From: Escherichia phage EC.W1-9
DNA: 40,616 nucleotides
Reading direction: 5' to 3' (one strand)
Sequence record: PP445227.1
Shown here: positions 180 to 40,616 of the stretch, piece by piece
How positions within the stretch are numbered: position 1 is the first letter of the stretch
How the letters are laid out: each line of letters opens with the position of its first letter
Translations under genes and position numbers: made by a program
The notes under the pieces: model-generated
The model's database searches: none
The model's input: only the letters and a program-made list of their open reading frames with translations
What the model was told of the DNA's origin: nothing

Positions 180-995
180 ATGAGCAGACATGCAACAGAT
201 TGGGCCTGGGAGACAGATCCAGGTAGCTCATCATTAAAGCTCATACTGCTCTCGATGGCTGACAGAGCCGATGAATATAACCTCTGCTACCCCAGCATAG
301 AACGCCTCGTTAAAGACACTTGCCTGAATAAAAAAACCGTGCAGGCCGGGCTTATATCGCTCATGAAAATGGGGCTTATTTCAGATACCGGAGAGAGAAA
401 GGGAGCGACAAAAAGAGTGCGGGTTTTCTCTCTTAATATAACCAAAAACGGGAACATTAAAGGCAACCGGGAGGGGGGCAATGAACCCGAAAACGGTAAT
501 GTTACCGAAAACGGGAATATACCCAAAAACGGGATGTTGAATGATCCCAAAAACGGGATGTTGAATGATCCCAAAAACGGGATCCAGAACCAGTCATATA
601 ACCAGTCATTTAACCAAGAGAGGGAGAGCAGGACAAAAAGCGGGGATTCTGTGCCTCATGACCCCGGAGCAAACAACGCCGTGATGAATAACTTTGTTCC
701 TCCTGGTGGGCCAGGGCAATTAGGCAAATTTGTCATGCATGAACAATGGCAGCCATCAGATGACTTTCTTCGGAAAAGCTCATTGCAGGGGATCTACCTG
801 GACAGTCTGCCAACGGCACAGGAACTTGCAGAGTTCAGAATTTACTGGATGGCTGAGGGTAAGGCATACCATCAGGCACAGTGGGAGCAGAAGCTGGCAA
901 GGCGGCTGCAGATTAGCAGACAGAAGCAATCAACATTACCTGATAACAACGTTCCGCACTGGAACAGCCCTGAAGCATGGGAGGATTTCTTGTGA
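180..995 (+). CDS. Replication initiation protein, lambda O-like (N-terminal winged-helix DNA-binding domain, internal iteron-encoded repeats)
   Basis: 271-aa ORF; N-terminus LKLILLSMADRADEYNLCYPSIERL typical of phage replication initiators; middle encodes PKNGMLNDPKNG repeats from DNA iterons; lies directly upstream of a P-like gene. Confidence 0.75.
   Translation: MSRHATDWAWETDPGSSSLKLILLSMADRADEYNLCYPSIERLVKDTCLNKKTVQAGLISLMKMGLISDTGERKGATKRVRVFSLNITKNGNIKGNREGGNEPENGNVTENGNIPKNGMLNDPKNGMLNDPKNGIQNQSYNQSFNQERESRTKSGDSVPHDPGANNAVMNNFVPPGGPGQLGKFVMHEQWQPSDDFLRKSSLQGIYLDSLPTAQELAEFRIYWMAEGKAYHQAQWEQKLARRLQISRQKQSTLPDNNVPHWNSPEAWEDFL
441..615. repeat. Iteron array (candidate replication origin) inside the O-like gene
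   Basis: At least six direct repeats of core AAAACGG(G/T)A at 444, 489, 507, 525, 549, 573 (two exact 24-bp copies CCCAAAAACGGGATGTTGAATGAT), followed by duplicated ACCAGTCAT(A/T)TAAC. Confidence 0.65.
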
Positions 996-1876: not shown

Positions 1877-1891
1877 TTACCTAAGGGGTAA
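1877..1891. promoter_or_regulatory. Palindromic site TTACC-N5-GGTAA
   Basis: TTACCtaaggGGTAA overlapping the SD region of the gene starting at 1895. Confidence 0.5.
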
Positions 1892-6368: not shown

Positions 6369-6383
6369 TTACCACAACGGTAA
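6369..6383. promoter_or_regulatory. Palindromic site TTACC-N5-GGTAA
   Basis: TTACCacaacGGTAA; a weaker second copy TTACCatggtGGTTA at 6387-6401. Confidence 0.45.
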
Positions 6384-6400
6384 CAATTACCATGGTGGTT

Positions 6401-6997
6401 ATGATGCCTGCTGAACCTAAAACCTATAAACGCAAATCAACGCAATTTAAGCCACTAACCGCAATGCAGGAGGCTTATTGCCAGTCATACATCAAAACGC
6501 CTGAAAACCAGACTCAGGCAGCGATTAACGCAGGATTCTCCCCAAATACAGCGGCAGTTAAAGCCAGTGTCATGATGCGCGATGAACGCATTCAAAAACG
6601 GATTGCCGAGTTGATGGAGGAGCGCAACAAACGAATGCGCGTCAGTGCCGATTACGTTCTCATGCGCCTGGTGGAGATCGACCAGATGGACGTGATTGAT
6701 ATCCTCAATGACGATGGGAGCCTTAAGCCAATCCGCGAGTGGCCGAAAATCTGGCGCACTACGCTTAGTGGCTTTGATCTGTCATCGACCATCATGAACA
6801 TGAACGAGGATTCGATAGAGACAATTCTCAAAAAAATTAAATGGCCTGACAAGGTGAAGAACCTCGAACTGATTGGTAAGCACGTCGACGTCAATGCATT
6901 CAAAGAACGCCTGGATGTTAATGTGAATGTGACAATTGCTGATCGCATAGCGGCAGCCAGGAAGCGACTCAAAGAACGTCAGGATGGTAATCAGTGA
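6401..6997 (+). CDS. Terminase small subunit
   Basis: AYCQSYIKTPENQTQAAINAGFSPNTAAVKAS region typical of phage small terminase; directly upstream of the large terminase. Start taken at the ATG at 6401 rather than the TTG at 6323. Confidence 0.7.
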   Translation: MMPAEPKTYKRKSTQFKPLTAMQEAYCQSYIKTPENQTQAAINAGFSPNTAAVKASVMMRDERIQKRIAELMEERNKRMRVSADYVLMRLVEIDQMDVIDILNDDGSLKPIREWPKIWRTTLSGFDLSSTIMNMNEDSIETILKKIKWPDKVKNLELIGKHVDVNAFKERLDVNVNVTIADRIAAARKRLKERQDGNQ

Positions 6998-8463
6998 CAG
7001 ATACAGCGTTATCTCCTGAAGAGCAGTTGATCGAGGATATTGCAGGGTTCACTCACGATCCGCTTGGCTATGCCCTCTATGCGTTCCCGTGGGGGGAAGA
7101 GGGGACTGAACTGGCACATGCTACCGGCCCACGTCAGTGGCAGGCTGATGCGTTCCGAGAGATACGTGATCACCTGCAGAATCCAGAGACGCGCTATCAG
7201 CCGCTTATGCTGGCACGCGCTTCTGGTCACGGTATTGGTAAATCCGCATTCATCTCAATGCTGATCAACTGGGGCATGTCCACTTGCGAGGATTGTAAGG
7301 TCGTGGTGACCGCCAACACCGACAACCAGCTACGAACGAAGACCTGGCCGGAAATTATCAAGTGGTCGAACCTTGCTATCACGAAAGACTGGTTTACCTG
7401 TACCGCTACTGCGATGTACAGCAATGATCCTGGGCACGACAAGCGGTGGCGAGCTGACGCAATCCCCTGGTCTGAGCACAACACTGAGGCATTCGCCGGA
7501 CTACACAACGAGCGCAAACGCATCATCGTGGTATTCGATGAAGCGTCGAACATTGCGGATCTGGTGTGGGAAGTTGCTGAGGGTGCGCTTACGGACGAAG
7601 ACACTGAGATTATCTGGGTGGCGTTCGGAAACCCTACACGTAATACCGGGCGTTTTCGCGAATGTTTCCGCAAATACAAACACCGCTGGAAAACTGCGCA
7701 GATTGACAGCCGGACGGTGGAAGGTACTAACAAACAGCAGTTGCAGAAATGGGTTGATGACTACGGGGAAGACAGCGACTTCGTTAAAATCCGTGTGCGC
7801 GGCATATTCCCTGATGCATCTGAATTGCAGTTTATCCCTACCGGTCTTACTGATGAGGCAATGAAACGGGTGGTAACCGCTGCGCAGGTTGCACATGCTC
7901 CGGTGATAATCGGCGTTGACCCGGCATACTCCGGAGTTGATGACGCTGTGATATACCTGCGGCAGGGGCTGCACAGTAAGGTGCTGTGGACTGGCAACAA
8001 GACCACTGACGATCTGATAATGGCGAAGCGTATCGCTGACTTTGAAGACCAGTACCAGGCTGACGCAGTGTTCATCGACTTCGGTTACGGAACTGGTCTG
8101 AAGTCAATCGGTGACGGCTGGGGTCGTACATGGCAACTTGTTCCGTTCGGTGGCGCGTCTACTGACCCGCAGATGCTCAACAAGCGTGGGGAGATGTTCA
8201 ACTCATGCAAGACATGGCTGAGGCTGGGCGGGATGCTGGATGACCAGGAAACAGCAGACGACCTGTCGACGGCAGAGTACAAAGTTCGCGTGGACGGTAA
8301 AATCGTTATCGAACCGAAGGAAGATATCAAAGAGCGACTTGGGCGTTCGCCGGGTAAAGGTGATGCGCTGCTGCTAACGTTCGCCTTCCCGGTAGCCAAG
8401 AAAACTAATGACCCACGGCAGCAGCAGGGGAAAGCTATTACTGAGTACGATCCGTTTTCATAA
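6994..8463 (+). CDS. Terminase large subunit
   Basis: 489 aa; Walker A-like ARASGHGIGKSAF; acidic nuclease-type C-terminal half; GTG start overlaps the small-subunit stop. Confidence 0.8.
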   Translation: MTDTALSPEEQLIEDIAGFTHDPLGYALYAFPWGEEGTELAHATGPRQWQADAFREIRDHLQNPETRYQPLMLARASGHGIGKSAFISMLINWGMSTCEDCKVVVTANTDNQLRTKTWPEIIKWSNLAITKDWFTCTATAMYSNDPGHDKRWRADAIPWSEHNTEAFAGLHNERKRIIVVFDEASNIADLVWEVAEGALTDEDTEIIWVAFGNPTRNTGRFRECFRKYKHRWKTAQIDSRTVEGTNKQQLQKWVDDYGEDSDFVKIRVRGIFPDASELQFIPTGLTDEAMKRVVTAAQVAHAPVIIGVDPAYSGVDDAVIYLRQGLHSKVLWTGNKTTDDLIMAKRIADFEDQYQADAVFIDFGYGTGLKSIGDGWGRTWQLVPFGGASTDPQMLNKRGEMFNSCKTWLRLGGMLDDQETADDLSTAEYKVRVDGKIVIEPKEDIKERLGRSPGKGDALLLTFAFPVAKKTNDPRQQQGKAITEYDPFS

Positions 8464-9105: not shown

Positions 9106-9120
9106 TTACCTTCAAGGTAA
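9106..9120. promoter_or_regulatory. Palindromic site TTACC-N5-GGTAA
   Basis: TTACCttcaaGGTAA upstream of the minus-strand moron gene. Confidence 0.5.
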
Positions 9121-9323: not shown

Positions 9324-9400
9324 TGGCGTGGCATGCAGGATTCGAACCTGCGACCAACCGCTTAGAAGGCGGTTGCTCTGTCCAACTGAGCTAATGCCAC
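9324..9400 (-). tRNA. tRNA-Arg (anticodon UCU)
   Basis: Reverse complement folds as a cloverleaf: acceptor GTGGCAT/ATGCCAC, D-arm GCTC…GAGC, anticodon stem ACCGC/GCGGT with loop CTTCTAA, T-arm GCAGG-TTCGAAT-CCTGC, discriminator G, encoded CCA; 77 nt. Confidence 0.85.
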
Positions 9401-9729: not shown

Positions 9730-9744
9730 TTACCTTAAAGGTAA
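9730..9744. promoter_or_regulatory. Palindromic site TTACC-N5-GGTAA
   Basis: TTACCttaaaGGTAAT upstream of the head-gene cluster. Confidence 0.5.
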
Positions 9745-24871: not shown

Positions 24872-25723
24872 ATGAAAAAAATAAATTTGTTTTTTGGCAT
24901 AGTGCTTTCAATAGTCTCTGTAAATCCTACAGCTGCCAGTTCATTGCAATGCAATAAGGATAACTTTGATGCATGCAAAACGTGCGAACAATTATCAAAG
25001 GCTATCGACTTAAAAGAACCTAATCGTGGCGATTACTATAGAGGGGCTTTATGGAATGGGCTTTACGCCTCTTATGTAATTAATTGCCCTGTGGTTGCAG
25101 AGAAGTTACTGAGCCATGGTGCTATACCATCATATGGCGGATATATGGGGTCTATGGGGGCGGTTCTGACAGGAAAATGGCCTCATAACAATGAATCAAT
25201 AAATCTTTCATGGGCAGATTTGCTTATAAAACATGGATTTGATGTTAATAGGCATACGGGGAATTATAAATCAGCTACTGAAGTATGGGCTATAGATAAA
25301 AAACAGATTGAATATAAGTCAGTTTTTGACAAGTTAATTCAATCCAGCGAAGTAAAACCACTCGATCCTTCAAGAAATTTAGAATGGTGTGCGTCTGAAG
25401 GGTATCGCTCAGTTGTCGTTTATTCCCTTAACTCATGTATAGAAAATGCTATAAAACGTTTGGATGACGGTGTTTCTTCAGCGTCTGATATTTCATCAGC
25501 AGCCGTAAATTCCTGTACTAGCGATGTAGAAAATTTCAATAAGCATTTGGCATGCAAAGCAGCTGTTAAAGAAAACTCTGATAAAGAGAGAAGCAACGTT
25601 TACCAGTTATTAACCAGTGATAGTCAAATGAATAAAAATGTTATTGATATGCTGAAGGAAAGAAATATTGAAACGGTTCTTGAATTTAGAGCTGAAAATC
25701 GATCAGCGAAAACTGCACAGTGA
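24872..25723 (+). CDS. Secreted cysteine-rich accessory protein
   Basis: N-terminal signal peptide (MKKINLFFGIVLSIVSVNPTAAS), many Cys, visibly AT-rich; followed by a terminator hairpin. Confidence 0.55.
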   Translation: MKKINLFFGIVLSIVSVNPTAASSLQCNKDNFDACKTCEQLSKAIDLKEPNRGDYYRGALWNGLYASYVINCPVVAEKLLSHGAIPSYGGYMGSMGAVLTGKWPHNNESINLSWADLLIKHGFDVNRHTGNYKSATEVWAIDKKQIEYKSVFDKLIQSSEVKPLDPSRNLEWCASEGYRSVVVYSLNSCIENAIKRLDDGVSSASDISSAAVNSCTSDVENFNKHLACKAAVKENSDKERSNVYQLLTSDSQMNKNVIDMLKERNIETVLEFRAENRSAKTAQ

Positions 25724-26930: not shown

Positions 26931-27623
26931 TCAGAAGAACCCTGCTTTGTCGTTGATGTACTCCGCGTGCGTCTGGATATCACGCAGGCATTTGCTCACA
27001 CCGACGATGTAGCAGAACATGGTGGTCAACTCCGCCGCCGCGCCCGATACGTCGTGCCCGTCTTCCTGTAACTGGTTTAGCAGATTCATCAGCAGTGAGT
27101 TCTCCGTCAGGCCGAGAACACCAGACGGCGAATGAATCAGGCTGCGGTAGCCGGGCTTCAGTGGGGCGCTGTAGGTTTTGTTCTCTACCTTCATTGCCTG
27201 CATCACTGCTGATGCTGTGGCGTTGGCTACCTGGTCGGCAACCATCTTTATGCGTTCTTCCTGCGGGAGCGAGTTTTTAATGTAACTTCCGGTGCGGCGG
27301 ATCTGAGGAAGAACCTCACCTGTAACCCATTCAAGAAATCTGAATGCTCTCGTTCCCTCAGTCATTGCCTCTTTGCAACGCAGAATAAGGATGTAGAGAC
27401 CTGATTCTGAAACGATGGATAGTTCTTGTATTCCACCAGGGGTCTGTATTGAATACAGCCCCTTTTTGTTCCAGCCTTTTTTATCAAGTTTTCTCGCTTG
27501 TGTAACATCAATATTCAAAGCATTGCACACATCTTTGGTGACAAACCAAGGTTCTCCGTCAATCATGAACATACGGATCTGGCAGGATGACTCAAAGGAA
27601 AAGATGGAAGGTTTGGTATTCAT
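26931..27623 (-). CDS. Antirepressor (Bro-N / KilA-N-type N-terminal domain)
   Basis: N-terminus FSFESSCQIRMFMIDGEPWFVTKDVCNALNI…GLYSIQTPGGIQELSIVSESGLYILI matches the Bro-N antirepressor fold pattern; ATG at 27623 after AAAGGTGA. Confidence 0.7.
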   Translation of the reverse strand: MNTKPSIFSFESSCQIRMFMIDGEPWFVTKDVCNALNIDVTQARKLDKKGWNKKGLYSIQTPGGIQELSIVSESGLYILILRCKEAMTEGTRAFRFLEWVTGEVLPQIRRTGSYIKNSLPQEERIKMVADQVANATASAVMQAMKVENKTYSAPLKPGYRSLIHSPSGVLGLTENSLLMNLLNQLQEDGHDVSGAAAELTTMFCYIVGVSKCLRDIQTHAEYINDKAGFF

Positions 27624-27889
27624 AGCGATCACCTTTGTAGTTAGGTTAATCACCACCGCTGAGACCAATCAGATGGTGGTGAACTGTGCAGAGTTGGTCT
27701 TACCGGCTACAAAGGAACCCGGCGCACCTTTCGGTGCCCCCACACAGCCCACCATAGAATAGGTGCGCTTTACACATAAAAAAACCGCTTATGCGGCATA
27801 TGTGCCTCTGTAGTAATCCGGGAGACCAATCCCGGCACTGGATTTTGCCAGTGCCCGATTACTATGGCACAAGAGGAGTGCAATGTAAA

Positions 27890-27904
27890 TTTACCGAAAA
27901 GGTA
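27890..27904. promoter_or_regulatory. Palindromic site TTACC-N5-GGTAA
   Basis: TTACCgaaaaGGTAAT; TATATGGTTTGAT follows about 35 bp downstream. Confidence 0.5.
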
Positions 27905-28066
27905 ATAATAAATGCATAACTCACGTTATTTCAACCCTATATGGTTTGATTTATCCCATTTCAGAAAATACCTGCCTATTTTTTTGCCAGTATGCGTATA
28001 CTTTCGATAGAATGTTTACCCTAGAGGTAGTTGGGGGTGCCCGTGAACACGAAGAGAGCTACAGTA

Positions 28067-28486
28067 ATGCAGCATTTGAGGAAATCAGAAAAAAATAAAG
28101 ACCATGAAATATTGAGTAAGGCCATTGTTCGGGCTTCCAATAATACTGTTATACCTCATGCTGAAGAGTCTGGACAGAAATTTCTTATTCGGTATTTCAC
28201 TGAAAATAGTGCAGTTGAGGAGATTTTAAAACATCAGGGAGGGGAATTTAAATGTGGAAAACTGGCAGATTATGTTCGTCGTGAAACGTCTGAACAAGAA
28301 GTATATTATGCTGATATTAATCATAAGTCAGGTGTGAAAATTGTAATAGGCTATTACACAACTCCCAAAAATGTTATGCATGAGGTCCCAAAGATGTCCG
28401 TCGAGAAATCTCATGCAATCTCGCGCAGGATGTTTGCACGCACTGCCGAAGATATGGCTCAGGAGCTCTACGACGATGCTGAATAA
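28067..28486 (+). CDS. Hypothetical protein, first gene of a two-gene accessory cassette
   Basis: ATG at 28067 after GAAGAGAG; 139 aa; overlaps the next gene by 11 nt. Confidence 0.5.
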   Translation: MQHLRKSEKNKDHEILSKAIVRASNNTVIPHAEESGQKFLIRYFTENSAVEEILKHQGGEFKCGKLADYVRRETSEQEVYYADINHKSGVKIVIGYYTTPKNVMHEVPKMSVEKSHAISRRMFARTAEDMAQELYDDAE

Positions 28487-28982
28487 ATTCCAGGGGTTGG
28501 TTCACCCTGGAATTTTTGGGAAGGACCCTGAGCTAATACCTATCAAAAACGCGTTCATAGATCACTGGCGCTACGGTCATCATAAGGATTTCGGAAAGGA
28601 CACTCTGTTTCGGGATCCACCGAAAGAAATGCTGGAATATCACATACGCCACGTTCACGTAAACATCGGAAACTATACTGACAAGTTTGGTGAGAGCGGT
28701 ACGGAACAATGCTGGAAAAACTGGGCGTCTGGGAAGAAAGACAAGACCACTAACAAGCATAAAAAGATCCCAACCAGTGACGTGTATGTGATTTATCTGG
28801 TCACATCTGAACGCCATGCCTTCCTTCTGGATTATTGGGATGAACCAGCACATAAGACAGTAGAAATTGACGAGCAGAAGCAAAAATTAGTTGTCGAGTG
28901 TGACAGAATTTTGCGGCTGAAAAAGTTAGAATCCATGCCGCGCGATGCTAGTTTGTGGGACCCAGAATTTTACGACTGTTAA
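28476..28982 (+). CDS. Hypothetical protein, possible toxin-like component (weak YafO-like motifs)
   Basis: 168 aa; motifs HVHVN and AFLLDYWDEPAHK resemble YafO-family toxin blocks as recalled from memory; followed by a terminator. Confidence 0.4.
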   Translation: MLNKFQGLVHPGIFGKDPELIPIKNAFIDHWRYGHHKDFGKDTLFRDPPKEMLEYHIRHVHVNIGNYTDKFGESGTEQCWKNWASGKKDKTTNKHKKIPTSDVYVIYLVTSERHAFLLDYWDEPAHKTVEIDEQKQKLVVECDRILRLKKLESMPRDASLWDPEFYDC

Positions 28983-28983
28983 T

Positions 28984-29008
28984 GGCCGCTTTCGCGGCCT
29001 TTTCTTTA
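28984..29008 (+). terminator. Rho-independent terminator (GGCCGC-tttc-GCGGCC + TTTTCTTTA)
   Basis: Same 16-nt hairpin as at 25731. Confidence 0.6.
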
Positions 29009-29263
29009 TGTGGTTTGTTTTCGTAATTGTTCGGCACAATAGTCGAGATGTGTTTGCAGATCCTGCATAGACATCTGTGAGCTGGTGACGTAGTTAATCA
29101 GTGCAGTCAGTTCGGCAAGTGGGCCATCGACATTAAATCCATCCTTATCGAGATCCCGGAGTAATTTCATCAAGTGCGATCCCTCCACCAGTGACCTGAC
29201 GCCTCCCGGCGTGTGAATCCTTTCGGTAAATCCGTCTTCCAGTGGATAGTGATACTGCTGCAT
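29006..29263 (-). CDS. Small protein paralogous to the antirepressor C-terminal domain
   Basis: ERIHTPGGVRSLVEGSHLMKLLRDLDKDGFNVDGPLAELTALINYV aligns by eye with the C-terminus of the 26931-27623 protein; ATG at 29263 after GGAGAAG. Confidence 0.5.
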   Translation of the reverse strand: MQQYHYPLEDGFTERIHTPGGVRSLVEGSHLMKLLRDLDKDGFNVDGPLAELTALINYVTSSQMSMQDLQTHLDYCAEQLRKQTT

Positions 29264-29339
29264 CTTATCTTCTCCATGCAATAACTGTATGTTTATACAG
29301 TAACAAATAATTTGTTTGCTATCCAGCACGTTTTGCAAA

Positions 29340-29354
29340 TTACCCGAAAGGTAA
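29340..29354. promoter_or_regulatory. Palindromic site ATTACC-N5-GGTAAT (perfect)
   Basis: In the divergent intergenic region between the 29263 gene and the tailspike. Confidence 0.55.
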
Positions 29355-34243: not shown

Positions 34244-34258
34244 TTACCTTAAAGGTAT
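34244..34258. promoter_or_regulatory. Palindromic site TTACC-N5-GGTAt (imperfect)
   Basis: ATTACCttaaaGGTATA upstream of the integrase. Confidence 0.4.
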
Positions 34259-39325: not shown

Positions 39326-39340
39326 TTACCGTTGAGGTAA
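39326..39340. promoter_or_regulatory. Palindromic site TTACC-N5-GGTAA
   Basis: TTACCgttgaGGTAAT 20 bp upstream of the leftward operon's first gene; an extra TTACC half-site at 39313. Confidence 0.5.
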
Positions 39341-39387
39341 TAATTATGCGTATATGGTTTGATGTCAATAGATATGAGTTAAAAAAA

Positions 39388-39402
39388 TTACCCGTTAGGT
39401 AA
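39388..39402. promoter_or_regulatory. Palindromic site ATTACC-N5-GGTAAT (perfect)
   Basis: Second site in the same control region. Confidence 0.5.
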
Positions 39403-39414
39403 TCGAATAGGCAA

Positions 39415-39438
39415 TAAAAAAGCCGCCATAAGGCGGCT
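39415..39438 (-). terminator. Rho-independent terminator after the repressor-like gene
   Basis: On the minus strand GCCGCC-ttat-GGCGGC followed by TTTTTT. Confidence 0.65.
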
Positions 39439-39459
39439 TACTTACTGAAAAATATGGTT

Positions 39460-40044
39460 TTATTGTTTGTTTTTTTCGTTCTGGTTGATGACAAATTCAA
39501 TGTAACTTTCGATCTTTGCTTTCTCGGTTTCGGGTAACAATGCGTAGCGCGAGCGATCATAGTTGATGGTCGCAGGGTCGTGCGGGTGAATCAGTAATTC
39601 ATAGCCGTGACGCCCGAATGCGGATGCAACATTCTCCAGGGTGGAAATGGAAACGCTGACCTCATTGTTTAACAGGCGGCTGATTGTCACCTGGGCTACG
39701 CCGGATGCGCGGTGAAGTTTTCCCTGTGTTGAAAGGTCGCGGCTTTCGCTCATCCAGCGTTCCAGGTTGTGAGCCGCCAGCTGGCCAATGTCGCTTGGGC
39801 CGACAGGCTGAAAACCTTCCTGAGAAAGCGAGCGATCGATATCAAGCCAGTTACGGGGTTTATTGGCGGCAGCTTCAATTTTTCGCGCAACCTGATCGCC
39901 GATAACCTTCTTACCAAGAGCCCAGCGGTTTACCAGATTTGCCTGAGTTCCAAGTTTTTCAGCCATCCGCGTCTGAACACCATTGAATTCACGGTCGATC
40001 AAGTCGTTGAGATTTTGCCTGCGGACGTCCTGGATACTTTTCAT
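39460..40044 (-). CDS. Repressor-like DNA-binding protein with two HTH-like segments
   Basis: 194 aa; segments LGTQANLVNRWALGKKVIGDQVARKIE and SGVAQVTISRLLNNEVSVSISTLENVASAFG look like XRE-type HTH units; divergent from a Cro-like gene across a triple-site region; no S24 peptidase motif noticed. Confidence 0.5.
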   Translation of the reverse strand: MKSIQDVRRQNLNDLIDREFNGVQTRMAEKLGTQANLVNRWALGKKVIGDQVARKIEAAANKPRNWLDIDRSLSQEGFQPVGPSDIGQLAAHNLERWMSESRDLSTQGKLHRASGVAQVTISRLLNNEVSVSISTLENVASAFGRHGYELLIHPHDPATINYDRSRYALLPETEKAKIESYIEFVINQNEKNKQ

Positions 40045-40098
40045 TTTCTGGAAAATCGCCTCATATATGAATCAGTAGATGATTCAATTTAAAGCAAT

Positions 40099-40113
40099 AT
40101 TACCCAACAGGTA
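40099..40113. promoter_or_regulatory. Operator-like site 1 of the divergent control region (ATTACCcaacaGGTAAA)
   Basis: TTACC-N5-GGTAA between the repressor-like and Cro-like genes. Confidence 0.55.
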
Positions 40114-40115
40114 AA

Positions 40116-40130
40116 TGCACCTCATGGGTA
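40116..40130. promoter_or_regulatory. Operator-like site 2 (GCACCtcatgGGTAA, imperfect)
   Basis: Centre 17 bp from site 1. Confidence 0.35.
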
Positions 40131-40146
40131 ACTATCCTTGATTTTT

Positions 40147-40161
40147 GTTACCTTATGGGTG
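40147..40161. promoter_or_regulatory. Operator-like site 3 (TTACCttatgGGTGA, imperfect)
   Basis: Centre 31 bp from site 2; triplet arrangement. Confidence 0.45.
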
Positions 40162-40198
40162 AATATTTATTATCTGAAATAAATATCAGGCAATAGCT

Positions 40199-40429
40199 AT
40201 GAGCGATAACGGACATTTCGATTTCAAAAAGCACTGGCTTGCACTTACTCCGGATGAGCGTGAAGCCTTCGCACAGGAAGCCGGAACGACGAGTCACTAT
40301 ATCCAGACTCACTTAACAGGTAAGCGCAAAATGCCAGGTAAAGTATTGATGAATGGGCTTTTTAAAGCCTGTAAAACAAGACAATGGCTGCGCTCAAAAG
40401 CAGAACTGGCATACTTCTTCTACTCATGA
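40199..40429 (+). CDS. Cro-like small DNA-binding protein
   Basis: 76 aa, transcribed divergently from the repressor-like gene, followed by a terminator; possible HTH in FAQEAGTTSHYIQTHLTGKR. Confidence 0.45.
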   Translation: MSDNGHFDFKKHWLALTPDEREAFAQEAGTTSHYIQTHLTGKRKMPGKVLMNGLFKACKTRQWLRSKAELAYFFYS

Positions 40430-40461
40430 TATCCAGCTACAACCCTCTGTAGACCGCCACC

Positions 40462-40483
40462 CGGCGGTCTTTTCATATCTATT
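40462..40483 (+). terminator. Rho-independent terminator downstream of the Cro-like gene
   Basis: GACCGCC-accc-GGCGGTC followed by TTTT. Confidence 0.6.
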
Positions 40484-40484
40484 C

Positions 40485-40499
40485 GTACCTCAAAGGTAA
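40485..40499. promoter_or_regulatory. Palindromic site gTACC-N5-GGTAAT (imperfect)
   Basis: Directly after the terminator; AACCAAATATGGTT follows. Confidence 0.4.
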
Positions 40500-40579
40500 T
40501 AAAAAACCAAATATGGTTGATATTTTTTTTGTGTCAGCACAAAATGACCGTAATCCCAATACTAATAACAGGGCTTACC

Positions 40580-40616
40580 ATGGAAATCATTACACGTATT
40601 GATGCCGCAAAGCGCG
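40580..40616 (+). CDS. 5' end of a gene truncated by the window edge (MEIITRIDAAKR…)
   Basis: ATG at 40580; the frame runs off the window and is in phase with the partial ORF at nt 1-164 if the sequence is circular. Confidence 0.4.
   Translation, partial: MEIITRIDAAKR

Follow-up and report, generated by a model that had tools for sequence, protein, structure and literature searches.

The lysogeny control region of a phiV10-type Escherichia phage compared with the Rep/Ant switch of SPC32H

Described switches and the place of this locus

The closest described system is the Rep/Ant switch of the Salmonella phage SPC32H (Uetakevirus), which was reportedly characterized by Kim and Ryu (2013, J Virol) and Kim et al. 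(2016, PNAS) and to which the structures PDB 5D50 and 5D4Z belong; in the earlier of these studies, SPC32H Rep was reportedly not cleaved during the SOS response. Phages P1 and P7 have a tripartite immunity in which the C1 repressor has many dispersed operators and immI consists of the c4 antisense RNA, icd and ant. The P1 operators are asymmetric 17-mers. The CI/Cro switch of lambda offers a third comparison.

The window (the whole stretch of DNA analysed, 40,616 nt) is an entire, circularly permuted Uetakevirus phage genome, and the region studied here, 39460-40429, is the lysogeny control (immunity) region of an E. coli phage of an ordinary phiV10/epsilon15 type (Uetakevirus). The DNA of the immunity region is 98–99% identical to that of phiV10, PAS61 and YDC107_2. 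For phiV10 and vB_EcoP_ZX5, both of the Uetakevirus phiV10 species, the figure is 98%, with no material difference inside 39460-40429, and Rep is 100% identical to phiV10 p40, to ZX5 ORF21 and to the repressors of at least 10 further phage records. The initial annotation had taken this region for an immunity region in which operators separate a repressor gene from a divergent Cro-like gene. That reading is supported: both open reading frames of the divergent pair (194 aa and 76 aa) lie exactly where they had been placed, and no gene was found with a better claim than rep to be the true repressor. The switch system is thus already known and not new, the repressor having been studied in near-identical phages (phiV10/ZX5), the mechanism described structurally from SPC32H and the genome-wide sites entered in the epsilon15 record. 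The phiV10 record already carries a remark on "two helix-turn-helix motifs" for the repressor, along with both terminators. Outside the immunity region, ant adjoins the isrK/C4/Bro-N module in phiV10, whereas here about 1.4 kb of extra DNA lies between them. A defence-system search (PADLOC) gave no match for seven accessory ORFs, among them those specific to the window that lie between the tail genes and ant.

We consider it very probable that this immunity region of a phiV10-type Uetakevirus operates as an SPC32H-type Rep/Ant switch. The two phages share a Rep homologous over its full length, an Ant about 90% identical, a LexA box upstream of an ant gene that is divergent from the tail-fibre/tailspike gene, and ATTACC-N5-GGTAAT sites, three in number and 17 and 30–31 bp apart, between rep and a small HTH gene. 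They differ in that Rep is only about 42% identical overall, with the divergence mostly in the linker and the C-terminal half, and in that SPC32H is without the Bro-N/Ant fusion behind isrK and C4 RNAs that is present here.

The likeness to lambda lies in the map order (OL/PL, repressor gene, three operators, PR, cro-like gene) and in PR and the presumed repressor promoter each lying under an operator. In contrast to lambda, Rep belongs to a family unrelated to CI and has no S24 self-cleavage domain, operators lie scattered in the late regions as well, and no N or Q homologue was detected by Pfam in the early operons; the SPC32H homologue of Rep, moreover, binds DNA as a tetramer (PMC9638917). 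The arrangement of one repressor with many genome-wide operators before separate transcription units resembles P1/P7 as commonly described, as does an antirepressor gene behind a C4-family RNA and an operator-bearing promoter. The operators here are palindromic, however, and Rep is of HTH_3/YdaS type by Pfam, so that this is a likeness of working and not of family membership.

Table 1. Features of the immunity region and of related control elements in the window, in map order
Feature	Position	Strand	Description
Two perfect operators	1815-1829 and 1877-1891		In the gap that separates replication gene P from the operon after it
Two dispersed operators	6369-6401		Right after a terminator and right before the small-terminase gene; epsilon15 equivalent 12-27 annotated as repressor site
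Further operator-type site	9106-9120		Dispersed
Dispersed operator	9730-9744		Upstream of portal-gene cluster; epsilon15 equivalent 2931-2947 annotated
Second antirepressor	26931-27623	-	Fusion of Bro-N with an Ant-like domain at the C-terminus; same type as phiV10 p23 ("anti-immunity")
C4 antisense RNA	27672-27759	-	Rfam RF01695, 78.6 bits (gathering 45)
isrK sRNA	27778-27854	-	Rfam, 74.7 bits (gathering 50)
Leftward promoter	27891-27934	-	TTGAAA-18-TATTAT, 10/12 matches; upstream of isrK, C4 and Bro-N/Ant
ant	29006-29263	-	85-aa SPC32H-type antirepressor; PHROG 450
Predicted LexA box	29283-29302		AACTGTATGTTTATACAGTA; near-consensus, with the ant start codon about 20 bp downstream
Perfect operator	29340-29354		Divergent region between ant and tail-fibre gene
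One-mismatch operator-type site	34244-34258		Upstream of integrase gene; 15 bp identical in SPC32H
OL/PL region	39326-39402		Two perfect operators (39326-39340, 39388-39402) around a leftward promoter, beyond the rep terminator
PL	39368-39363 and 39345-39340	-	TTGACA, 17 bp, AATTAT; 10/12 matches; conserved in five phages
Intrinsic terminator after rep	39412-39439	-	Also annotated in phiV10 record
rep	39460-40044	-	194-aa prophage repressor; ORF list, Pfam, homology to SPC32H Rep
Domains of Rep			N-terminal HTH (DNA-binding), middle HTH_3-like, C-terminal (tetramerisation/Ant-binding); probable roles by homology to SPC32H Rep as described in PMC9986798
rep promoter (PRM-like), weak, putative	40086-40114	-	-35 TTACCT (40114-40109), 17 bp, -10 TAAATT (40091-40086)
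Operator nearest rep	40100-40114		TTACCCAACAGGTAA; perfect TTACC-N5-GGTAA, 0 mismatches; half-sites invariant in five phages
Middle operator	40117-40131		GCACCTCATGGGTAA; GCACC-N5-GGTAA, 2 mismatches; perfect in epsilon15 and SPC32H
PR	40138-40173	+	Rightward promoter of the Cro-like gene, with candidate hexamers
Operator over PR core	40148-40162		TTACCTTATGGGTGA; TTACC-N5-GGTGA, 1 mismatch; motif scan, five-phage alignment
Cro-like gene	40199-40429	+	76-aa five-helix HTH protein; first gene from PR
Intrinsic terminator after Cro-like gene	40451-40480	+	Also annotated in phiV10 record
Operator and conserved promoter	40485-40545	+	Operator 40485-40499 (1 mismatch); promoter TTGATA-17-CAAAAT (40517-40545)

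Rep, the antirepressors and the small divergent gene

Rep is a prophage repressor without an autocleavage domain, as established by homology or published experiment. With phmmer, its residues 1-190 align with residues 2-197 of SPC32H Rep (PDB 5d50_A, E=4e-42). The lack of an S24 domain, which had been claimed from the letters, was borne out by the domain search that had been proposed as a check: a Pfam scan at E≤1 returned HTH families alone (HTH_3 in two stretches, the best at 106-147, and a YdaS-type HTH at 21-61) and no match to Peptidase_S24, and the C-terminal half aligns to residues 92-198 of SPC32H Rep and not to an S24 domain. The further claim of a tandem HTH protein stands in part, since two HTH-like segments are present by sequence but the second (106-147) falls in the dimerising, not the DNA-binding, part of SPC32H Rep. 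According to PMC9986798, SPC32H Rep has a DBD-MDD-CAD architecture with an N-terminal DNA-binding domain, and residues 92-198 form the dimerisation and the tetramerisation/Ant-binding domains; PMC9638917 describes the tetramer binding DNA and Ant splitting it into dimers. In ZX5, overexpression of ORF21 left zero free phage and lowered endolysin and holin transcripts by 99.97–99.99%, and the ZX5 lysogen is inducible by mitomycin C (PMC9782041). In the BP9 record, the repressor is entered as a "VapI antidote"; a toxin-antitoxin reading was rejected, with no toxin partner found and clear homology to Rep.

Since Rep is non-autocleaving, SOS control must be indirect, as had been proposed earlier. 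Support for such indirect control comes from the same genome, where the predicted LexA box is followed by an SPC32H-type ant. The ant product matches the anti-repressor protein of PDB 5d50_E (E=1.3e-47), and the box is the one match to the LexA 20-mer consensus at ≤3 mismatches in the whole window, with 0 expected. A predicted LexA box is also kept upstream of ant in SPC32H, epsilon15 and phiV10, making four phages with this one; in SPC32N, mutation of the box reportedly goes with clear plaques or high spontaneous induction. A DNA-damaging microcin raised the induction of phiV10-species prophages 21- to 47-fold. We propose that DNA damage would remove LexA from the box at the ant promoter, that Ant would then be made and that, as in SPC32H, it would bind the C-terminal domains of Rep and convert the DNA-binding tetramer into dimers, with release of the DNA.

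The second antirepressor has a Pfam Bro-N domain, a match of its residues 164-240 to 5d50_E (E=1e-13) and an assignment to PHROG 130 ("anti-repressor Ant"). The C4 and isrK genes lie immediately upstream of its ATG at 27623, the same pair being found in phiV10, and the -10 of their leftward promoter abuts a perfect operator at 27891-27905. A predicted C4-family RNA gene directly upstream of an antirepressor gene suggests an arrangement of the P1 immI type. The repressor and the Bro-N anti-repressor of ZX5 have both been tried by overexpression (PMC9782041). Placed behind a promoter presumably controlled by Rep and behind isrK/C4, the Bro-N/Ant protein may reinforce the switch.

The Cro-like gene corresponds to phiV10 p41, epsilon15 gp39 and SPC32H_042, with conserved synteny, and it adjoins rep in all Uetakeviruses examined. 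Its 76-aa product (gp41 below) belongs to PHROG 35 ("transcriptional repressor", E=6e-13), and no Pfam family passes for it. The AlphaFold model (pLDDT 84.7) has five helices; against the PDB, Foldseek puts the YdaS N-terminal domain first (TM 0.65, probability 0.95), followed by the DNA-binding domains of 434 repressor and P22 c2, with E-values that are not significant (≥0.4), as is usual for so small a domain. The assignment of an XRE/Cro-type fold thus follows from consistent top matches and a TM of about 0.65 and not from significant E-values. In prophages of the Rac/CP-933P type, YdaS comes from the first gene on the side divergent from the repressor and is held to be the equivalent of Cro. 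Similarity of gp41 to the N-terminal domain of Rep is weak (27% over 41 residues).

Position and modelled structure suggest that gp41, made from PR, acts like Cro at the rep/Cro-like intergenic region. It might instead be a CII-like or accessory regulator, activating for example the establishment transcription of rep, with lytic commitment coming wholly from the antirepressors. The missing Pfam assignment, the one-gene unit closed by a terminator and the presence of two antirepressors, which could make a Cro dispensable, would suit such a role. We nevertheless regard it as unlikely, because gp41 is a single-domain HTH protein of 76 aa encoded in the Cro position, first in PR and divergent from the repressor, because YdaS is its best structural match and PHROG 35 its family, and because the gene is conserved beside rep in the Uetakeviruses examined.

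Operators beside rep and across the genome

The three ATTACC-type sites that had been seen between rep and the Cro-like gene were recovered at centres 40107, 40124 and 40155, with the spacings of 17 and 31 bp that had been given. In the five-phage alignment of this intergenic region, the spacers differ and the half-sites are invariant. The rightmost site sits between a conserved TTGATT block (40138-40143, common to all five phages; conserved TTGATTTTT) and the -10 region of PR, for which the best hexamer pair by scan is TTGTTA (40145-40150), 17 bp, TATTAT (40168-40173), with 9/12 matches. The leftmost overlaps the -35 and spacer of a putative rep promoter that was read from the sequence below the scan threshold and whose geometry is kept in epsilon15 and SPC32H. 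In reverse of lambda, the best-matching operator of the gap is the one nearest rep and not the one at PR.

The count of three holds for this gap only, as about 17–18 sites are present genome-wide, including those at 39326/39388 and 40485. At ≤1 mismatch, TTACC-N5-GGTAA has 17 matches in the genome against 0.61 expected, a number reached by 0 of 100 shuffles, and 16 of the 17 are intergenic (P=6e-16). It is also the top 5-N5-5 palindrome genome-wide, with 11 perfect copies compared to ≤2 for any other. Seven such sites are labelled "protein_bind: repressor" in the epsilon15 GenBank record, among them the counterparts of the OL sites, and the same motif occurs at syntenic positions in epsilon15, SPC32H, Klebsiella phage BUCT711 and one Serratia prophage. 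The sites at 1815 and 1877, for example, have syntenic partners in epsilon15 (35907/35969, one annotated) and in the other three. Operators overlap or abut promoter hexamers at PL, where the -10 abuts 39326-39340, at PR and at 27905-27934; the 9730-9744 operator abuts the -10 of a leftward promoter-like site aimed at tRNA-Arg. About 25 bp separate the 40485 operator from the downstream -35 of the conserved promoter that serves the replication-gene operon starting at 40580. Since the two do not overlap, simple occlusion fails to explain repression there.

From the letters of these sites, Rep probably recognises 15–17 bp ATTACC-N5-GGTAAT palindromes, and the dispersed sites would be assigned to it by annotation and by the co-conservation of motif and recognition helix. 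The helix, N-L-[VI]-[NS]-R-W, is nearly invariant among homologues of 42–100% identity, with N36, R40 and W41 invariant. In a search for covariation of helix and motif, no Rep homologue with another recognition helix was found, down to 42% identity, among phages, in a 5.8-billion-protein search or in the Serratia prophage, and all homologue genomes checked carry one same operator motif.

It could be argued that the dispersed palindromes are not Rep's, or not only Rep's, and that they serve gp41 or regulators encoded in the left operon (PerC-like or AlpA-like), or act as promoter elements of lytic timing. Several of them (40485 and 29340, for instance) lie clear of any obvious core promoter; many precede TAAT/TAAAAT, and their conservation could then partly be that of -10-like sequence; and gp41 is itself an HTH protein with weak similarity to the N-terminal domain of Rep. 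The same motif, however, builds the classic three-site OR and two-site OL arrays beside rep, the sites are entered as those of the repressor by the authors of the epsilon15 record, and motif and Rep helix persist together in elements ranging from E. coli to Serratia even though the remainder of Rep falls to 42% identity. We find this alternative quite improbable; sharing of operators by a repressor and its Cro is normal and would be compatible with the Rep/Ant reading.

Terminators, insulated units and wider significance

A terminator after rep had been claimed at 39415-39438 and matches the hairpin at 39420-39439, where 6 of the 8 bp in the stem are GC pairs and a U-run is present (dG -18.7 kcal/mol; z -4.4). 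The one after the Cro-like gene is likewise present, but its claimed position (40462-40483) is about 10 bp too far right of the hairpin at 40451-40470 (tail to ~40480; dG -15.0, z -6.2). The two terminators had been taken to imply either antitermination or tight insulation. Beyond the terminator of the Cro-like gene comes a conserved promoter that has an operator of its own, which favours insulated transcription units, and a Pfam search of 20 proteins (ORFs ≥50 aa), including 16 encoded in the right and left early operons, gave no N-/Q-type antiterminator family; antitermination was rejected as the favoured reading, although an antiterminator of a novel kind is conceivable.

It is extremely improbable that this is a lambda-type CI/Cro switch, with RecA-stimulated self-cleavage of the repressor and delayed-early genes reached by antitermination through the flanking terminators: the OL/PL-to-cro layout and the terminators after both genes resemble one, but Rep has no S24 domain by Pfam and is a full-length homologue of SPC32H Rep and not of CI, the early-operon proteins include no N/Q-type family by Pfam, a conserved promoter bearing its own operator lies beyond the Cro-like terminator, and ant lies behind a predicted LexA box in the same genome.

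In the Rep/Ant reading, Rep would silence the prophage promoter by promoter and not through an antitermination cascade. With one operator over the PR core and another over the likely rep promoter, Rep would also regulate itself; two more operators bracket PL, and about a dozen others lie before most of the remaining transcription units. The two terminators, after rep and after the Cro-like gene, would keep these units insulated.

A broader joint reading is possible, if doubtful: operator specificity would be frozen group-wide, immunity and induction specificity would be set by the C-terminal domain of Rep together with the antirepressor, and a second antirepressor gated by C4/isrK would act as a lock. 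The frozen-specificity part draws on the same helix and motif being present in elements from E. coli, Salmonella, Klebsiella, Enterobacter and Serratia with Rep identity down to 42%. If true, immunity specificity would not be set at the operator, unlike in lambdoid phages, and the Rep-repressed second antirepressor of phiV10-type phages would form a positive-feedback lock that could partly replace Cro. Operator specificity seems frozen across Enterobacterales hosts, which raises an evolutionary question of modest weight. Phages of the phiV10 type serve as E. coli O157 reporter and engineering chassis, and a complete map of the Rep operators and the LexA box, together with both antirepressor modules, shows engineers which promoters are silenced in the lysogen and what to remove for an obligately lytic derivative.

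A further motif, ATRTGGTT, has 9 copies in the window compared to 3.3 expected, a borderline excess that 2 of 100 shuffles reached. No single explanation covers all copies; some are part of an AACC-N6-GGTT near-palindrome, and the copy at 40511 overlaps the -35 of the conserved promoter downstream of the Cro-like gene.

Repressor and its DNA reading

Tests on the identical ZX5 protein and on homologues in SPC32H and epsilon15 establish Rep, the product of rep, as the prophage repressor. Rep is 100% identical to phiV10 p40, ZX5 ORF21 and homologues in at least 10 other phage records. Overexpression of ZX5 ORF21 yielded no free phage and lowered endolysin and holin transcripts by 99.97-99.99% (PMC9782041). 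Rep aligns end to end with the SPC32H repressor of solved structure (5d50_A, E=4e-42), to which the epsilon15 record, by HHpred, also ties the experimentally named repressor gp38.

The initial annotation described two HTH-like segments without an obvious LexA/S24 autocleavage signature, and Pfam agrees: it finds two HTH_3 stretches plus an N-terminal YdaS-type HTH, whereas S24 peptidase gave no match. The phiV10 GenBank record gives p40 the note 'two helix-turn-helix motifs'. Rep has no self-cleavage domain. The term tandem HTH is apt at the sequence level but would not extend to DNA reading: by homology with SPC32H Rep, DNA would be read solely by the N-terminal HTH, because the second HTH_3-like segment (106-147) lies within the 92-198 part of SPC32H Rep. 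Secondary accounts of Kim et al. 2016 give the order of that protein as an N-terminal DNA-binding, a middle dimerisation and a C-terminal tetramerisation domain, the last of which also binds the antirepressor (PMC9986798), and describe the DNA-bound form as a tetramer and the dimer as a poor binder (PMC9638917).

Immunity region and dispersed operator-type sites

The divergent pair of rep and the Cro-like gene is present as initially described, with three operator-like TTACC-N5-GGTAA palindromes between the genes at centre spacings of 17 and 31 bp. An alignment of this region from five phages shows variation in spacers and flanks and none in the half-sites. Of the intergenic operators the rep-proximal one matches best, the reverse of the situation in lambda; it appears to cover both the -35 and the spacer of a promoter-like pair (TTACCT-17-TAAATT) that is weak but conserved, so that rep autoregulation would result. 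At the rightward promoter PR, the operator seems to lie inside the core promoter. The terminators claimed after both genes are real and already annotated in the phiV10 GenBank record, though the second had been placed about 10 bp too far right.

Coordinates of features of the immunity switch and neighboring elements
Feature	Position	Strand	Detail
rep ORF	39460-40044	-	194 aa
Cro-like ORF	40199-40429	+	76 aa
Operator nearest rep	40100-40114		perfect
Middle operator	40117-40131		two mismatches
Third intergenic operator	40148-40162		one mismatch
Terminator after rep	39420-39439	-	dG -18.7 kcal/mol, z -4.4
Terminator after Cro-like gene	40451-40470	+	dG -15.0, z -6.2
Rep-type operator starts	1815, 1877, 6369, 6387, 9106, 9730, 26831, 27891, 28016, 29340, 32310, 34244, 39326, 39388, 40100, 40148, 40485		plus weaker 40117
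LexA box	29283-29302		AACTGTATGTTTATACAGTA
ant ORF	29006-29263	-	85 aa
Bro-N/Ant gene	26931-27623	-	second antirepressor
C4 and isrK RNAs	27672-27854	-	78.6 and 74.7 bits
Promoter of isrK/C4/Bro-N module	27891-27934
ATRTGGTT motif	1864, 9789, 27939, 29387, 39352, 39452, 40511	+

Pfam gave no match for the Cro-like protein. It falls in PHROG 35 ('transcriptional repressor'), is conserved in enterobacterial prophages (61-97% identity), where it always adjoins rep, and is weakly similar to the Rep N-terminal domain. Its predicted structure is a five-helix HTH (pLDDT 84.7) that best matches the YdaS N-terminal domain of prophage CP-933P (TM 0.65), with the DNA-binding domains of 434 repressor and P22 c2 as other best matches. 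A Cro-like role is our best guess, and a reasonably likely one from sequence and model.

The initial annotation stopped at the three intergenic operators, but the same palindrome, with up to one mismatch, occurs at 17 positions in the window (0.61 expected), plus the weaker 40117 site, and its abundance is therefore not chance. When all 5-N5-5 palindromes were counted without bias, TTACC reached 11 perfect copies and every other word at most two. Sixteen of the 17 sites lie wholly within the non-coding 9.4% of the genome (P=6e-16); the exception, 32310, has one mismatch, is inside a gene and may be a chance match. Just past the rep terminator, two perfect sites flank a strong leftward promoter (TTGACA-17-AATTAT, 10/12 matches) whose -10 abuts an operator; this arrangement is the OL/PL equivalent, and the epsilon15 counterparts of its sites are annotated as repressor sites. 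Site 40485 follows the terminator of the Cro-like gene and lies ahead of the promoter for the replication genes (TTGATA-17-CAAAAT), which is conserved across all five phages. Because this putative operator is upstream of the -35, occlusion does not explain repression there, and tetramer looping is possible. Further sites stand ahead of the genes for the small terminase and the integrase, the portal cluster and the operon that comes after replication gene P, and in the divergent region between ant and the tail-fibre gene.

Counterparts of these sites stand at syntenic positions in epsilon15, SPC32H, Klebsiella phage BUCT711 and a Serratia ficaria prophage. The epsilon15 record already gives seven sites of this kind the label 'protein_bind: repressor', so a dispersed network has been noted in the group before. 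Both the Rep recognition helix (N-L-V/I-N/S-R-W) and TTACC-N5-GGTAA are unchanged in elements of E. coli, Salmonella, Klebsiella, Enterobacter and Serratia, with Rep identity down to 42%, and no Rep homologue recovered had an altered recognition helix. Operator specificity seems frozen across hosts, perhaps because a dozen or more operators must change jointly, and cross-immunity among these phages may follow from it.

Rep tetramers would occupy the palindromes, with the operator within the PR core and abutting the -10 at the leftward promoter PL and at 27905-27934. Nearly every transcription unit has its own candidate operator and many end in a terminator, which suggests that the prophage is probably silenced unit by unit. 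The initial annotation had offered antitermination or tight insulation; the latter is preferred because Pfam scans of 20 proteins, 16 of them from the early operons, found no N- or Q-like protein.

A second motif, ATRTGGTT, has nine copies (3.3 expected; nine reached in 2 of 100 shuffles), eight of them on the plus strand; seven have a Rep-type operator 19-57 bp to their left. Three copies lie within an AACC-N6-GGTT (or ATCC-N6-GGTT) near-palindrome, and those at 40511 and 29387 within blocks conserved in epsilon15 and SPC32H. Predicted IHF sites adjoin some repressor sites in the epsilon15 record.

Two antirepressor modules

The view that SOS control must be indirect is borne out by a LexA box and an SPC32H-type ant in the window. 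The near-consensus box is the genome's only one (0 expected by chance) and lies about 20 bp upstream of an ORF matching the SPC32H antirepressor chain of 5D50 (E=1.3e-47). Conservation upstream of ant extends to SPC32H, epsilon15 and phiV10 and takes in a perfect Rep-type operator and a TTGCA -35-like block as well as the LexA box. In SPC32H, Kim and Ryu reportedly found in 2013 that Rep stays uncleaved during the SOS response and that ant is under LexA repression, and a LexA-box point mutation (phage SPC32N) is said to give constitutive Ant. The indirect mechanism is thus already described: upon DNA damage, LexA cleavage would allow Ant to be made, and Ant would strip Rep off DNA. Mitomycin C induces the ZX5 lysogen (PMC9782041), and a DNA-damaging microcin induces phiV10-species prophages 21- to 47-fold.

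The second antirepressor gene encodes a Bro-N domain fused to an Ant-like C-terminal domain. Directly upstream are the genes for the isrK sRNA and C4 antisense RNA, both Rfam-significant, and the module is preceded by a good promoter with its -10 directly next to a perfect Rep-type operator. All three genes also occur in phiV10, and the layout is absent from epsilon15, SPC32H and BUCT711. It resembles the P1/P7 immI region, which comprises a C1-controlled promoter, c4 RNA and ant. Overexpression of the ZX5 Bro-N anti-repressor reduced lysogeny (PMC9782041).

Some 1.4 kb (27960-29000) separate ant from this module, whereas the two are adjacent in phiV10. On its plus strand this stretch holds the ORFs 28031-28486 (PHROG 9503) and 28371-28982 (PHROG 1651), both PHROGs of unknown function, which had no Pfam or PADLOC match and are preceded by a 10/12 promoter followed immediately by the one-mismatch Rep-type operator 28016.

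Genome identity and minor features

The 1.3 kb around the immunity region is 98-99% identical to YDC107_2, PAS61, phiV10, O157 typing phages 9 and 10 and others, and 77% identical to Enterobacter phage Tyrion; the remainder of the window matches the same phages. PAS61 positions 7020/7021 correspond to the junction of the window's last and first base, which indicates that the window holds a complete genome in circularly permuted form, by sequence that of an epsilon15/phiV10-type podophage of the genus Uetakevirus. An ORF from 40580 (phiV10 p42 homologue) crosses the window end and resumes at base 1. The initial observation holds up and the core of its interpretation is supported, but the element has been described before: it is identical or near-identical to that of phiV10 and ZX5, and SPC32H explains the mechanism.

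Between the terminase and portal clusters lies a tRNA-Arg (anticodon TCT; 9324-9400, minus strand), with a leftward promoter-like site upstream (9773-9744) whose -10 abuts Rep-type operator 9730. After the tail and internal-protein genes, a 283-aa ORF (24872-25723, plus strand; PHROG 6118, unknown function) with a signal-peptide-like N-terminus gave no PADLOC match and is a possible lysogenic-conversion or moron gene. Within the DnaT-like replication gene, the terminator scan flagged a 20-nt hairpin-like sequence that is directly duplicated (530-573, minus strand; TGGGATCATTCAACATCCCG then TTTTTGGG, copies 24 bp apart) and could represent iteron-like origin repeats.
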